Shown: positions 96-4,059 of the stretch, piece by piece | Layout: each line of letters opens with the position of its first letter | Numbering within the stretch: the stretch's first letter is position 1 | DNA from: a virus | Lineage: Duplodnaviria > Heunggongvirae > Uroviricota > Caudoviricetes | Virus record (IMG/VR): IMGVR_UViG_2671180770_000009 | Direction: 5' to 3' (one strand) | DNA: 4,059 nt | Made by a program: the position numbers and the translations under genes | The notes under the pieces: generated by a model | Told to the model about the DNA's origin: nothing | The model's database searches: none | What the model saw: the letters and a program-made list of their open reading frames with translations, nothing else

Positions 96-172
96 TGTAG
101 ATTGATCCAGTAATTCCCTCAGAATTGCATATCAATTTGCTTAGAGTCCCCGGCGGCCACCGGGGATTTTTT
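96..172 (+). ncRNA. oop: OOP-like antisense small RNA, antisense to the 3' end of cII
   Basis: Plus-strand segment gtagattgatccagtaat...ctcagaa resembles the lambda oop RNA as I recall it, and ends in a GC-rich hairpin plus T-run inside the cII 3' coding end. Position and antisense orientation relative to cII and O match lambda oop. The 5' end is estimated from the putative -10. Confidence 0.55.
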
Positions 173-415
173 CTTTGTGATTTCATCAAGCGCATACTTA
201 AAAGCCCTGCTAATCGGACTGATGTCTGATGCCATTCCGAAAGCACACAAGACCGAAGCAATAAATCTCCAGTCCGTTCTGCTTATCTTCGATTCATGAC
301 AGCCAATCATCTTTGCCAGACCGCGCTGGGTAAGCGTTGACAGGTTGATGAGTAAATCAGTTTCAGCGCGATCAATTTCTCGCTGTGATAGTTTGCTGTA
401 ACTTGTTTGTTCCAT
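119..415 (-). CDS. cII: CII-like transcriptional activator (lysogeny establishment)
   Basis: 98-aa ORF. C-terminal KKKSPVAAGDSKQIDMQF closely parallels the lambda CII C-terminus KKRPAATERSEQIQMEF as I recall it, and length is similar to lambda CII (97 aa). Gene order cro-cII-O is conserved, and the region upstream of the ATG (ggaaatcttaagaaATG) resembles the lambda cII translation initiation region. Confidence 0.85.
   Translation of the reverse strand: MEQTSYSKLSQREIDRAETDLLINLSTLTQRGLAKMIGCHESKISRTDWRFIASVLCAFGMASDISPISRAFKYALDEITKKKSPVAAGDSKQIDMQF
147..175 (+). terminator. Rho-independent terminator of the oop-like RNA
   Basis: Stem tccccgg (147..153) / ccgggga (160..166), 6-nt loop, followed by TTTTTTCTTT (167..176). 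The T-run is on the plus strand only, so it does not terminate cII transcription. Confidence 0.6.
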
Positions 416-553: not shown

Positions 554-787
554 TTATGCAGCCGATGCTCTACGCGATACGAACACTAGGTTTTCCTTTT
601 TCACAGGTTTATAACCCGTGAAATTACGAGTAGCTTCTTCGATTGCATTCGCTTTATCAGGGGAAGCTCTTCGAAATCCATATGCAATCTGGTCAAGATA
701 GCCAACTGAAGTTTTCGCTAATGCGGCGAGTCGCTTCCATTCCTCACTAGAAGCCTCTTTTCGCCAGCGTAGTAGTTCATTACTCAT
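554..787 (-). CDS. cro: Cro-like HTH DNA-binding regulator
   Basis: 77-aa ORF transcribed divergently from the CI-like gene, with a GGAGG Shine-Dalgarno (complement of 793..797) 5 nt before the ATG. A helix-turn-helix-like segment (LAALAKTSVGYLDQIAYG) is present. No similarity to lambda or P22 Cro that I can recall, so the call rests on position and HTH. Confidence 0.7.
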   Translation of the reverse strand: MSNELLRWRKEASSEEWKRLAALAKTSVGYLDQIAYGFRRASPDKANAIEEATRNFTGYKPVKKENLVFVSRRASAA

Positions 788-900: not shown

Positions 901-1605
901 ATGGAAAACAAAGATATTCGCAAATCGAATCTGGCGTTTTTGCTAGATGAGCATAAAAAAATCGCGGGTAACACTAATGCAAGCTTTGCCGATAAGCTTG
1001 GGGTTAGCCCTTCTCAACTCACGCAAGTCTCCGGTGAAAAAAGCACTCGAAACATAGGGGATAAACTAGCAAGAAAATTTGAAGCCGCGCTTGGGTTACC
1101 TAATGGGTGGCTTGATTTGGTACATGATGTAACACCAATTGCATCATGCTCAGATTCTTTAACTTTTGTCGGTCAGGTAAGAAAAGGGTTAGTGCGCGTG
1201 GTTGGTGAGGCAATTCTTGGTGTTGATGGTGCCATCGAGATGACCGAAGAGCGCGATGGGTGGCTCAAAATTTATAGCGATGATCCAGATGCCTTTGGTC
1301 TTCGTGTGAAAGGAGACAGCATGTGGCCCAGAATAAAATCAGGAGAATATGTACTCATTGAGCCTAACACCAAAGTATTCCCGGGTGATGAGGTGTTTGT
1401 CAGAACCGTTGAAGGACACAACATGATTAAGGTTCTTGGCTATGACAGAGATGGAGAATACCAATTTACAAGCATTAACCAGGATCACAGGCCTATAACG
1501 TTGCCTTATCATCAAGTAGCAAAGGTGGAGTATGTAGCTGGTATTCTGAAGCAATCTCGCCATCTGGATGACATCGAGGCAAGGGAGTGGCTGAAAAGTT
1601 CGTGA
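901..1605 (+). CDS. cI: CI-like prophage repressor (N-terminal HTH_XRE domain, C-terminal S24/LexA-type peptidase domain)
   Basis: 234-aa ORF. N-terminal HTH (NASFADKLGVSPSQLTQV). The C-terminal domain carries the S24 catalytic serine motif GDSM (Ser139) and a downstream lysine (MIKVLG, Lys177), and FGLRVKGDSM aligns with LexA FLLRVSGMSM. Divergent from cro with operators between. Confidence 0.9.
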   Translation: MENKDIRKSNLAFLLDEHKKIAGNTNASFADKLGVSPSQLTQVSGEKSTRNIGDKLARKFEAALGLPNGWLDLVHDVTPIASCSDSLTFVGQVRKGLVRVVGEAILGVDGAIEMTEERDGWLKIYSDDPDAFGLRVKGDSMWPRIKSGEYVLIEPNTKVFPGDEVFVRTVEGHNMIKVLGYDRDGEYQFTSINQDHRPITLPYHQVAKVEYVAGILKQSRHLDDIEAREWLKSS

Positions 1606-1665
1606 CTTCATCGTCACATAGCTGGTAACCAGTGGCCAGAAGAAACGTTTGGGTGAGGAGGATAG

Positions 1666-2007
1666 ATGGCGTTCACTGACCTTGAATATCAAGCGGTCAA
1701 AAAAGAAGTTCACCAATTCATTGAAAGCATAAGGCCGCCTGAACATATCCGCAATGAACTGGATATTGTTTATAGCATCAATGACCAAACGATAGATATC
1801 GGCGAACAGCGCCCCGTGTGGCAGGGCAACCCAGGTGAAACAAACATCCTGCCATCAGCAAGAATCAAGTACATACGTTCTCTGGATAGATGGAAAATCT
1901 ATTGGATGCGGAAGGATATGAAATGGCATCAGTACAGTACTGAACTTTCGCTGACTGATGCGCTTGAGCTTGTGCGTGCTGACCCGGATTGCTGCTTCTT
2001 CGGATGA
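1666..2007 (+). CDS. DUF3024-like small protein (function unknown), first gene of the accessory cassette
   Basis: 113-aa ORF with a strong Shine-Dalgarno GAGGAGG (1653..1659) 6 nt before the ATG. It contains a WKIYW motif and a C-terminal CCFFG; from memory this matches Pfam DUF3024 (conserved WKI motif), which needs an HMM search to confirm. No terminator between the cI stop (1605) and this gene. Confidence 0.8.
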   Translation: MAFTDLEYQAVKKEVHQFIESIRPPEHIRNELDIVYSINDQTIDIGEQRPVWQGNPGETNILPSARIKYIRSLDRWKIYWMRKDMKWHQYSTELSLTDALELVRADPDCCFFG

Positions 2008-2077
2008 GTGAAGAGACGTTTGGATGATGGATGATCGCAGAGATGCTCGTAGAGCATACAGCGATGCAGGAGAATTT

Positions 2078-2512
2078 ATGGCACTTAATTTAGAAAGAAT
2101 ATCTTTTATAACCCCATTTGATAGCAGCGAAGAACCCAACCAACCGACGCTTAATTTTACATGCAATGAATTTCCTGCGCGGCTATCAATTGATTTCAGG
2201 GTTGGTATGATCGGGTTGAAACCAAATTCAAGATATAATTTGGGTATTATGGTAATCCCCGCGCACCTAATTATAAAAAAAGGTGAGGAAATTCAATTCC
2301 CTGACGGCTCTTCGGAATCAGTTTCACTTTTCATCGATACGAAAGATAGCCATTTTGAAACAGGGGTTGGCGGACAGGTAATAGTAACATTGAAAGAAAT
2401 TAGGGTCCCAGCTAAAGGGCTGTATAGTGTTATAGGGATATTGCAAGATAATGAAGACCCTAAAAATGAACTTCATAAAAATGAATCATTTTTCACCGTA
2501 GAGCTATTATGA
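2078..2512 (+). CDS. Hypothetical protein (about 144 aa, no recognisable domain), accessory cassette gene 2
   Basis: Open frame 2024..2512. Preferred start is ATG 2078 because AGGAG (2068..2072) sits 5 nt upstream; the ATG doublet at 2024/2027 has only a weak SD. Visibly AT-richer than the flanking phage core genes. Predicted soluble, no obvious TM segment. Its stop TGA overlaps the next ATG (ATGA at 2509..2512). Confidence 0.65.
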   Translation: MALNLERISFITPFDSSEEPNQPTLNFTCNEFPARLSIDFRVGMIGLKPNSRYNLGIMVIPAHLIIKKGEEIQFPDGSSESVSLFIDTKDSHFETGVGGQVIVTLKEIRVPAKGLYSVIGILQDNEDPKNELHKNESFFTVELL

Positions 2513-2661
2513 GTGACGACAGTAATTTAAATAATCATGGAAAGCAAGACGCCAACATATCTGAAAGCCGGAGGTTGAAGGTTGTTGGCGGTTCCGATTT
2601 TGAGGCTGAATTTGATAATTCTCCCACCAAGGTGCAAAATAATTACATAAAACCGCCATAA
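2509..2661 (+). CDS. Small hydrophilic ORF (50 aa), translationally coupled to the upstream gene
   Basis: ATG 2509 overlaps the upstream stop as ATGA. It translates as MSDDSNLNNHGKQDANISESRRLKVVGGSDFEAEFDNSPTKVQNNYIKPP and stops at TAA 2659..2661, 12 nt before the next gene's start. Not in the ORF track, presumably because of a length cutoff. No independent SD, so coding status is uncertain. Confidence 0.35.
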   Translation: MSDDSNLNNHGKQDANISESRRLKVVGGSDFEAEFDNSPTKVQNNYIKPP

Positions 2662-2673
2662 ACGGAGGAAGAA

Positions 2674-3129
2674 GTGGGAACGATCAGCAGAGAGGAACTT
2701 GATGCTCGCTTAGCTGCTAATAAAGCAGAGATGGAGTCTATTGCTTCTTCCATTAGGGCTGACATGGCTCTATCTCGTGAAAGCGTTAATGTCCAATTTG
2801 CATCACTTAATGCAGCCATAAGCTCTCTATCGTCCAAGATCGATGGAAAGATGGATAGCGCTGCTGGCGATATAAAAGCAATTAATGGGAGATTCGAAGG
2901 AATTCAAGGACAAATAACAGGGGTTAATACCGCAATTAGTGGTGTTCAGTCGGGTATTTCTATACGATTAGCCATTTTTAGTGTCATTATCGCTGTAATA
3001 GTTGCGATTCCCGGGCTGGTATCAGCTTTAAAGTCAGACCACGCACCTTTGCAACAGCCTTCCACTTTGCAAGCGCCGCCACAAAATACCCAGCCAACAG
3101 ACAACAAAAAAATCACTCCCCAGCATTAA
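2674..3129 (+). CDS. Tail-anchored coiled-coil membrane protein (single C-terminal TM helix, Pro/Gln-rich tail), accessory cassette gene 4
   Basis: 151-aa ORF from GTG 2674 (the first start codon after the in-frame stop at 2659..2661), with a strong SD GGAGG (2664..2668) 5 nt upstream. N-terminal about 95 aa are Ala/Ser/Ile-rich with a heptad-like pattern. A hydrophobic helix RLAIFSVIIAVIVAIPGLVSAL (about nt 2965..3030) is followed by a polar tail PLQQPSTLQAPPQNTQPTDNKKITPQH. Followed by an intrinsic terminator. Confidence 0.75.
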   Translation: MGTISREELDARLAANKAEMESIASSIRADMALSRESVNVQFASLNAAISSLSSKIDGKMDSAAGDIKAINGRFEGIQGQITGVNTAISGVQSGISIRLAIFSVIIAVIVAIPGLVSALKSDHAPLQQPSTLQAPPQNTQPTDNKKITPQH

Positions 3130-3137
3130 CGCATTAA

Positions 3138-3163
3138 CCCGGCCTCAGCGCCGGGTTTTCTTT
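3138..3163 (+). terminator. Rho-independent terminator ending the cI-cassette operon (t_imm analogue)
   Basis: Stem cccggc (3138..3143) / gccggg (3150..3155), 6-nt loop ctcagc, followed by TTTTCTTT (3156..3163), 9 nt after the stop of the membrane-protein gene. Confidence 0.7.
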
Positions 3164-3339
3164 GCCTCACGATCCCCACACCTAAAAACACATAACCAAT
3201 TGTATTTGTTGAAAAATAAATAGATACAACTTGCTAAACAACGCAATCCAGATCTCCCTCAAATCTCTTTATTTATCCTGTCGAATTCCTACAACAAAAT
3301 AAAACACCATAAGAATCAATACGATATTTGAAAACCAAG

Positions 3340-3635: not shown

Positions 3636-3974
3636 ATGACACGCAGAACTCAGTTCAAAGGCAATTCACGTTCTCGTCGTCGTGAGCGTTTAAAGGTAAA
3701 GGCATTAGCTAACGGCGTACTGGCCCGCGAAGAAGCAATAAGTTCAGAAGTATTACACCGCCCTACTCTAAGCAGAGCGCAGATTCAGGCTAAAGGTACT
3801 CACGAAACGCCTGAGCGTATAGAAGACGCTAAGCCAATTAAGTTCATGGCACAGGACGTGATCTGGCAACAGAAAGAATACAGACGCAATCTGGAGCGAG
3901 CGGCCATTGTGTACGCGAATGAGTTTGGACATAAGCAACCAGAAACTGGTGTATGTCTTGGCTTTGTTGAATAA
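3636..3974 (+). CDS. N: N-like transcription antitermination protein (arginine-rich motif)
   Basis: 112-aa ORF with SD AGGAGG (3625..3630) 5 nt before the ATG. N-terminal arginine-rich motif TRRTQFKGNSRSRRRERLK resembles the P22 gp24 ARM (GNAKTRRHERRRK, from memory). Position downstream of OL/pL/nutL on the cI strand matches lambda N. Confidence 0.75.
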   Translation: MTRRTQFKGNSRSRRRERLKVKALANGVLAREEAISSEVLHRPTLSRAQIQAKGTHETPERIEDAKPIKFMAQDVIWQQKEYRRNLERAAIVYANEFGHKQPETGVCLGFVE

Positions 3975-4059
3975 ATCGAACTTTTGCTGAGTTGAAGGAT
4001 CAGATCACGCATCCTCCCGACAACACAGACCATTCCGTGGCAAAGCAAAAGTTCAGAAT
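3975..4059 (+). other. Conserved N-distal region, resembling the lambda sequence downstream of N (tL1 neighbourhood)
   Basis: ttgaaggatcagatcacgcatcctcccgacaac...ccgtggcaaagcaaaagttca is nearly identical, from memory, to a lambda segment found downstream of N in pL-based vectors. Recollection only, not verified by alignment. Confidence 0.35.

Follow-up and report, generated by a model that had tools for sequence, protein, structure and literature searches.

The stretch of DNA considered here (IMG/VR record IMGVR_UViG_2671180770_000009, 4,059 nucleotides, from a virus of the Caudoviricetes; hereafter the window) is the immunity region of a lambdoid prophage, lying in the opposite orientation to the usual lambda map, and as a whole it corresponds to one complete draft contig of E. 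coli (GCA_001277695.1, CYAV01000142.1). The open reading frame (ORF) under study, at 2674-3129 on the plus strand, has 151 codons and a GTG start; it makes up the last 151 codons of a 206-codon gene interrupted by a nonsense mutation. The gene belongs to phrog_5820, a family of phage proteins of unknown function, and follows a small partner gene, orf144, with which it forms a two-gene cassette. The features of the cassette are the following:

2078-2512, plus strand: orf144 (phrog_5893), the partner gene
2509-3129, plus strand: ancestral 206-codon gene (phrog_5820 family), with an in-frame TAA at codon 51
2509-2661, plus strand: N-terminal extension, here a free-standing ORF of 50 amino acids (aa), whose ATG overlaps the orf144 stop (ATGA)
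2569-2622, plus strand: 18-residue motif RRLKVVGGSDFEAEFDNS (codons 21-38), candidate docking peptide for the partner
2659-2661, plus strand: premature stop TAA, C to T at 2659; intact relatives have CAA (Gln51)
2664-2676, plus strand: internal initiation region, with GGAGG at 2664-2668, a 5-nt spacer and GTG
2674-3129, plus strand: flagged 151-codon ORF, equivalent to the family's conserved core (head helix, heptad rod, transmembrane (TM) helix, periplasmic tail)
2689-2925, plus strand: long cytoplasmic alpha-helix/coiled coil (residues 61-139 of 206), including the conserved head SREEL..ANKAE..
2842-2967, plus strand: Gly-rich heptad repeats DGKMDSA/AGDIKAI/NGRFEGI/QGQITGV/NTAISGV/QSGISIR
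2968-3024, plus strand: single TM helix LAIFSVIIAVIVAIPGLVS (residues 154-172 of 206)
3025-3126, plus strand: Pro/Gln-rich C-terminal tail, presumed periplasmic (34 residues, 6 Pro and 6 Gln)

The 50-codon and the 151-codon ORFs share a common frame and are separated by the lone TAA. On the phrog_5820 profile, which has 200 positions, the product of the former matches positions 1-56 (E = 5.6e-07) and that of the latter positions 63-199 (E = 7.1e-61), and the latter score shows that the 151-codon ORF did not arise by chance. Phage HK542 and E. coli 2013C-3342 both have, over the same region, a single coding sequence of 621 bp for 206 aa; the E. coli 2013C-3342 sequence is 99.9% identical to the window across the 1651-base stretch 1600-3250. 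The initial annotation had described 2674-3129 as encoding a tail-anchored coiled-coil membrane protein, starting directly after a small ORF. The features that it listed are all present, namely the GTG with a strong Shine-Dalgarno (SD) sequence, the helical N-terminal region, the single C-terminal TM helix and a Pro/Gln-rich tail of about 30 residues; the ORF boundary was wrong, this copy of the gene being interrupted, and the small ORF is the N-terminus of the same gene. The premature stop, the identity of the small ORF and the true partner, orf144, had all been missed.

The TAA is not a sequencing error, since the allele recurs across several assemblies and runs: the exact 50-aa product (WP_244588940.1, CTT80647.1) is recorded from at least 8 short contigs deriving from several assemblies and sequencing runs, and five retrieved contigs with the TAA allele carry 0-2 other single-nucleotide differences relative to the window. 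The nonsense allele is thus inherited. It is also rare, the intact 206-aa form being recorded from hundreds of contigs, and it was found on short draft contigs only; it was not found in IMG/VR. The cassette is present in 51 of 5426 complete E. coli genomes, and the best full-length matches among complete genomes are annotated with an uninterrupted two-gene cassette. Past the TAA, the reading frame continues with neither frameshift nor further stop in the contigs that cover it (L046, L047, L048, L050), and a fifth contig (L049) ends 24 codons into this frame. At window position 3043, three other TAA-allele contigs have A for G, an Ala to Thr change in the periplasmic tail; therefore, the interrupted gene kept accumulating change in this lineage.

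Several lines of analysis converge on the architecture of the encoded protein. The AlphaFold2 (AF2) model of the 206-aa monomer consists of one long helix, followed by the TM helix and by a disordered tail, with a predicted TM-score (pTM) of 0.23; the long helix spans residues 61-139, with predicted local distance difference test (pLDDT) values of 80-88 over residues 61-110, and the membrane helix residues 149-173. Hydrophobic periodicity has its maximum at 3.5 residues, i.e., in heptads. In the Kyte-Doolittle profile the 19-residue maximum, 2.71, falls on LAIFSVIIAVIVAIPGLVS, which is the sole segment above 1.6, and no N-terminal hydrophobic segment is detected by the same method; a single TM helix close to the C-terminus, with 34 residues beyond it, is the layout of a tail-anchored protein. 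The protein is bitopic and C-tail-anchored, with a predicted orientation that places most of it on the cytoplasmic side. The N-terminal extension, of about 55 residues, is disordered and holds one constrained motif of 18 residues: in the comparison between E. coli and Klebsiella copies the ratio of nonsynonymous to synonymous substitutions (dN/dS) is 0.03 over RRLKVVGGSDFEAEFDNS and about 1.1 and 0.84 in the flanking segments. The value over the motif indicates that the extension is translated.

The family is wider than the E. coli copies. Using clusters made at 50% identity, a word-indexed search retrieved 28 clusters, in which the organism-named matches are all from Enterobacterales, and an exhaustive profile search retrieved 248 cluster representatives at E <= 1e-3, 106 of them at E <= 1e-10; a scan of species-representative genomes gave one Xenorhabdus locus only. 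The conserved core opens precisely at the position of GTG 2674, and comprises in order a Met or Val, the head (I/V)(S/T)REEL..ANKAE..EMAxxRE, the heptad rod, GINTAISGIQSG, the TM helix and the Pro/Gln tail. Rod length shifts among homologues by whole 7-residue units, and wider relatives have additional rod repeats of the NAKIDGIDKSL type. In most members the tail bears a hydrophobic strand motif, QP(I/V)(I/V)I(Q/Y)VP, which is degenerated to QPSTLQAP in the E. coli/HK542 type. Upstream of the core there is an extension of 45-100 residues that is not alignable across the family.

In all loci examined, a small gene lies directly upstream of the family gene, abutting or overlapping it, and three unrelated partner families were found. 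Type A extensions, which carry RRLKVVGGSDFEAEFDNS, occur only with orf144/phrog_5893, in E. coli, Klebsiella, Cedecea and others; type B extensions (LRAVPNCGSGIDKxDLYPN) pair with a CxxC..CxxC protein of about 100-130 aa (phrog_4293), whose motifs are zinc-ribbon-like, the Pfam zinc-ribbon matches being sub-threshold; type C extensions pair with proteins of about 92-102 aa. Since extension type and partner type switch together, the N-terminal extension most plausibly acts as an adaptor for the upstream partner, a well-supported reading of these pairings. In the window, the ATGA overlap between the orf144 stop and the start of the membrane gene indicates translational coupling of the two. As to orf144 itself, its homologues are all 143-144 aa long and start at the equivalent of ATG 2078, which is preceded by GGAG; thus, a 162-codon call (2024-2512) is over-extended. 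The orf144 protein is cytoplasmic, and its AF2 model (pLDDT 69.7) is a seven-stranded all-beta sandwich, resembling generic immunoglobulin (Ig)/fibronectin type III domains and uncharacterised phage proteins.

The boundary between extension and core has a further peculiarity. In 11 diverse loci the boundary codon is ATG or GTG, and in 10 of these its SD pairing energy ranks in about the best 10% of in-frame codon positions of the gene; all of the loci keep the long frame open. At GTG 2674 the anti-SD duplex energy is -9.5 kcal/mol, which places it with the strongest duplexes of the gene. Most of the annotated 5′ starts, which abut or overlap the upstream gene, have no SD. Among the Val-type DNAs the boundary codon is GTG in 5 of 5, including Klebsiella, which has reached saturation at synonymous sites in the comparison with E. 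coli. In one member (P0016) the gene caller took the internal ATG (AGGAGG, -10.3 kcal/mol) despite the long frame being open for 64 more codons, and several cluster representatives start at the boundary Met. The simplest reading is that intact genes likely give two products, a long and a short isoform; nested in-frame isoforms of this kind are documented for SieB/Esc and S105/S107 (PMC3224144). In this copy the TAA precedes the intact SD and GTG by 12 nt; therefore the long form is lost, and the short 151-aa form would still be able to initiate, so that the 151-aa product may be real despite the interruption. A sigma-70-like site at 2612-2640 on the plus strand (TTGATA, 17 nt, CAAAAT; 9/12) falls within the coding region of the N-terminal extension, just 5′ of the internal SD and GTG, a position reminiscent of lambda pLit within rexA. 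No weight was given to it as a promoter of the short isoform, sigma-70-like sites being fewer than in shuffled sequence (1 vs 4.4).

The genes that surround the cassette define its setting:

119-415, minus strand: cII (PF05269)
554-787, minus strand: cro-like gene
901-1605, plus strand: cI-type repressor, helix-turn-helix and Peptidase_S24 (PF00717, E = 3.8e-16; phrog_4)
1666-2007, plus strand: DUF3024 gene (PF11225, E = 2.4e-31), directly 3′ of cI
3136-3165, plus strand: intrinsic terminator closing the cI operon, equivalent to lambda Timm; 8-pair stem (6 G-C), then a T tract
between the terminator and N: pL/nutL region
3636-3974: N-type antiterminator ORF, cut short by an IS903-family insertion sequence (IS) element at ~3960

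The cI gene heads the operon that carries the two-gene cassette, and the slot of the latter, 3′ of cI and 5′ of a Timm-type terminator, is the position of rexA-rexB in lambda. Indeed, the HK542 record EF120458 annotates the equivalent terminator as Timm, and the HK542 records annotate the matching pRM, operators, Timm and pL. A consensus scan detected no further terminator-like site on the plus strand from cI to position 3136; because the cassette lies in the cI operon with no such site intervening, it should be transcribed together with the repressor in the lysogen. No RNA family was found in the window by Rfam. Similarity to HK542 starts at about window position 2009 and reaches 3250, the end of the query, which identifies the two genes as one shared block. 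This block is found behind at least 4 different repressors, including lambda-type and 933W-type ones, and in HK542 and HK244, both with a lambda-type immunity region, it stands physically in place of rexAB; the HK542 copy consists of HK542c105 and c104 (JQ086373, 26069-27120). A different location is seen in two IMG/VR prophage contigs (L038, 4486-5489; L040, 4485-5495), where a type C partner and a homologue of the membrane gene lie on the opposite strand among tail genes; here the cassette adjoins the tape-measure gene, with small lipoprotein and membrane ORFs alongside, and the setting looks like a moron cluster.

Taken together, the interrupted 206-codon gene, its rex slot and the tail-anchored coiled-coil architecture constitute a gene structure that can be regarded as almost certain, and the internal start and the adaptor role, considered jointly, as probable.

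Other elements of the window appear to be separate from the cassette. For the DUF3024 gene, PADLOC gives a match to PDC-S43, a candidate defence model (E = 7e-42); the gene is also found 3′ of cI in 933W and other Shiga toxin (Stx) phages; since HK542 has the cassette without it, it constitutes a module apart. The cro-like gene encodes 77 aa without any Pfam match and with only weak ones to PHROG transcriptional repressors (phrog_35, E = 4e-07). Positions 3960-4059 hold the end (~100 bases) of an element of the IS903 family (IS5 family) with matches in thousands of plasmid records; this end stands in for the last 19 codons of N: the intact N of the related prophage L002 has 127 aa and ends in ..AAGYRKSKQLTAR, the N ORF of the window 112 aa and ends in ..GFVE. 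The junction between N and the IS was found in no complete genome of the collection. In L002 a separate gene annotated as 'superinfection exclusion protein' is present in the pL operon.

The membrane gene is affected by four independent types of lesion. Besides Q51*, complete E. coli genomes show a +1 frameshift after nt 330 of the gene (L056, 732-1410), an IS1 insertion after nt 363 (L057, 732-1841, in two strains) and the in-frame loss of codons 13-113 (L058, 732-1046, in two strains). The orf144 homologue WP_001207141.1 is annotated as intact in 3 of the 3 genomes examined, and the window has an intact orf144. Lesions of the membrane gene with an intact partner can be read as a signal of cost.

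Comparison with known systems gives likenesses of layout. Lambda RexA and RexB occupy the same slot, in the cI operon from repressor to Timm, as two adjacent genes for a cytoplasmic and an inner-membrane protein, respectively; in the window, too, two genes lie with the repressor upstream of the immunity terminator. The Rex proteins differ in having no sequence similarity to the cassette proteins: RexA is a DNA-binding protein, unlike the 144-aa Ig-like sandwich of orf144, and RexB is a compact protein with four TM helices, whereas the cassette protein spans the membrane once and has a long coiled coil in the cytoplasm. With SieB the cassette shares a possible nested isoform. An in-frame internal start in sieB yields the shorter inhibitor Esc (table in PMC3224144, citing Ranade & Poteete 1993); here an SD and a start codon are conserved at a domain boundary, and two isoforms are predicted from sequence. 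Differently from the window gene, which lies in the cI operon and has no SieB Pfam match, sieB is found in the pL operon. Prophage-expressed pairs of cytoplasmic and membrane proteins encoded near immunity genes and acting in heterotypic defence are described for the mycobacteriophage/Gordonia prophage systems Sbash gp30/31, Butters gp30/31 and CarolAnn (PMC7542560, PMC6426606); the hosts are unrelated, the membrane components are multi-pass, and a relationship in sequence would not be expected.

The initial annotation had also compared the protein to XhlA-like hemolysins, holin-associated proteins and RexB-like effectors. Its view of architecture and genomic slot is borne out, the gene lying between a repressor and a Timm-type terminator with a coupled gene upstream; the resemblances to named families are not. 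XhlA and holin-associated proteins share with the window protein only a broad arrangement, with a coiled coil at the N-terminus and a TM helix at the C-terminus, and differ in context, since the family lies beside repressors and never beside an endolysin, holin or spanin gene in the loci examined. In these loci no lysis gene stands beside the family gene, whose neighbours are repressors, cro/cII, N, the small partners or, in two loci, tail genes; a lysis-cassette context, which had been named as evidence to the contrary, and a virion-gene context are found in none of the immunity-region loci. The window protein has no match to the XhlA profile (PF10779) in Pfam at E <= 1, and PF10779 is not among the 25 most-matched Pfam families listed for 29 family members; no RexB-type match was obtained for the window protein in Pfam, PHROGs or PADLOC, and a single TM helix sets it apart from RexB. 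Baculo_PEP_C (PF04513) was considered and set aside: the window protein scores 20.6 bits against a gathering threshold of 38, read as compositional similarity between coiled coils, and weak matches occur in 26 of the 29 members, with a best E of 6.9e-08 and a highest bit score shown of 33.4, below 38. The CCDC90-like/DUF1640 family (PF07798) has, as here, a coiled coil and a C-terminal TM helix, and gives weak, mostly sub-threshold matches in 9 of the 29 members (threshold 33.5 bits; window protein 13, distant relative L043 23.5), and one distant representative, P0150, narrowly exceeds the threshold with 34.7; in this case too the likeness may be compositional, although a remote link is possible. 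This family is not known to have an established function in bacteria.

It is reasonable to consider the two genes a candidate anti-phage cassette, with abortive infection or superinfection exclusion as the putative function suggested by context. Expression linked to the repressor, moron-like mobility, the pairing of a cytoplasmic with a membrane protein, module swapping that resembles an arms race and fast-evolving linkers all point to a phage-exclusion module, which would be Rex-like. According to the proposed mechanism, the small cytoplasmic partner would sense an infection cue and act on the membrane protein through the docked N-terminal peptide; oligomerisation driven by the coiled coil would gather the TM helices, compromise the inner membrane and abort the infection. 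The nested short isoform would tune or antagonise the long form, like Esc on SieB and S107 on S105, and Q51* would uncouple the effector from the sensor. Q51* is most likely a loss-of-function allele, or a detoxified and uncoupled one, in a decaying prophage. As a whole, the speculative Rex-like mechanism included, this best explanation is put forward tentatively, with a chance of being correct that is judged somewhat below even.

A number of results weigh against it. Pfam scans of the protein, 28 relatives and three distant homologues gave coiled-coil families below threshold and no XhlA, holin, RexB or SieB; no PADLOC-DB v2 model matches the 151-aa, the 50-aa or the orf144 protein, and no meaningful PADLOC match was obtained for the type B and C partners or for the distant homologues. 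A PDB sequence-profile search gave only trimeric viral coiled coils and similar structures, at E >= 0.004, and the generic Ig-like sandwich of orf144 offers no functional lead. Literature searches, including HK542/HK244, accessions, phrog identifiers, rex-slot defence and DefensePredictor supplements, yielded nothing on these proteins. The clustering of lesions in the membrane gene is non-significant, this gene making up 59% of the cassette (4 of 4 events, p ~0.1), and GAG GAA runs in Glu-rich coding sequence can look like an SD, so that part of the internal-start signal could be a protein-level preference. Finally, the tail motif of most relatives would fit an envelope-directed block of injection at least as well as a pore.

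The periplasmic tail and/or the TM helix could block genome ejection or channel formation at the envelope, with the partner as a stabiliser or regulator and not as a sensor. P22 SieA, T4 Imm and HK97 gp15 block incoming genomes at these steps, the last being an exclusion moron whose product crosses the membrane once; the cassette, too, comprises a prophage-expressed single-pass inner-membrane protein, its tail motif QP(I/V)(I/V)IxVP is conserved in distant relatives, and in L038/L040 it is a moron beside tape-measure and tail genes. However, the known injection blockers act alone, whereas here a cytoplasmic partner co-varies and a large, conserved rod in the cytoplasm makes up most of the membrane protein, and the tail motif is degenerated in the E. 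coli/HK542 type itself; superinfection exclusion of this sort is considered unlikely. A role outside defence, either in lysogenic conversion affecting host envelope or stress physiology, as for tail-anchored ElaB/YqjD-like proteins, or in biasing induction, as reported for RexA, would agree with the finding of no defence-family homology by PADLOC and with the non-defence cargo that immunity-region and moron positions also hold; moreover, RexA/RexB are reported to aid the lysogenic-to-lytic transition. Conversely, the swapping of partners and adaptors with a linker dN/dS of about 1 is a typical arms-race pattern, and neither the type A partner orf144 nor the membrane protein showed a DNA-binding or enzymatic domain; a role of this type is considered rather improbable.

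A different matter is whether the window copy is functional. It could be a pseudogene in a degrading prophage, its 151-codon ORF leaving no stable product, a reading compatible with any function of the intact copies. Besides the premature TAA at codon 51, the truncation of N on the same contig by the IS903-family element, the lesions of other kinds (frameshift, IS1, deletion) that this gene carries in other genomes and the further nonsynonymous tail change (3043 G/A) gained by the nonsense lineage would all be expected of decay. Nevertheless, the geometry of a TAA placed 12 nt 5′ of an intact, family-conserved SD and GTG favours re-initiation, and the remaining frame has no lesion beyond the TAA in the four contigs that cover it; a pseudogene appears quite possible, short of probable.

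For annotation, the consequence is that WP_244588940.1 (50 aa) and the adjoining 151-aa call are the two halves of one interrupted gene. More broadly, lambdoid immunity regions are classic sites of prophage exclusion genes, rexAB being an example, and the cassette might belong to an unrecognised, modular two-gene exclusion family of Enterobacterales prophages, in which swappable sensors (an Ig-like sandwich, a Zn-ribbon-like protein or one of ~95 aa) would dock the matching peptide of a tail-anchored coiled-coil effector, the short isoform would set the trigger threshold as in SieB/Esc, and Q51* would be a natural uncoupled mutant; in this full form the proposal is somewhat unlikely. If the cassette is a defence module, its effector would be an unusual one, a single-pass, tail-anchored coiled-coil rod; it would also illustrate cleanly how sensor and adaptor modules are swapped, and would join SieB/Esc as a second case of control by nested isoforms. 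These predictions are directly testable, since HK542, a sequenced and named isolate that a 2026 preprint on OLD mentions, carries the intact cassette in place of rexAB; the two-gene family thus represents an uncharacterised, experimentally accessible candidate exclusion cassette.

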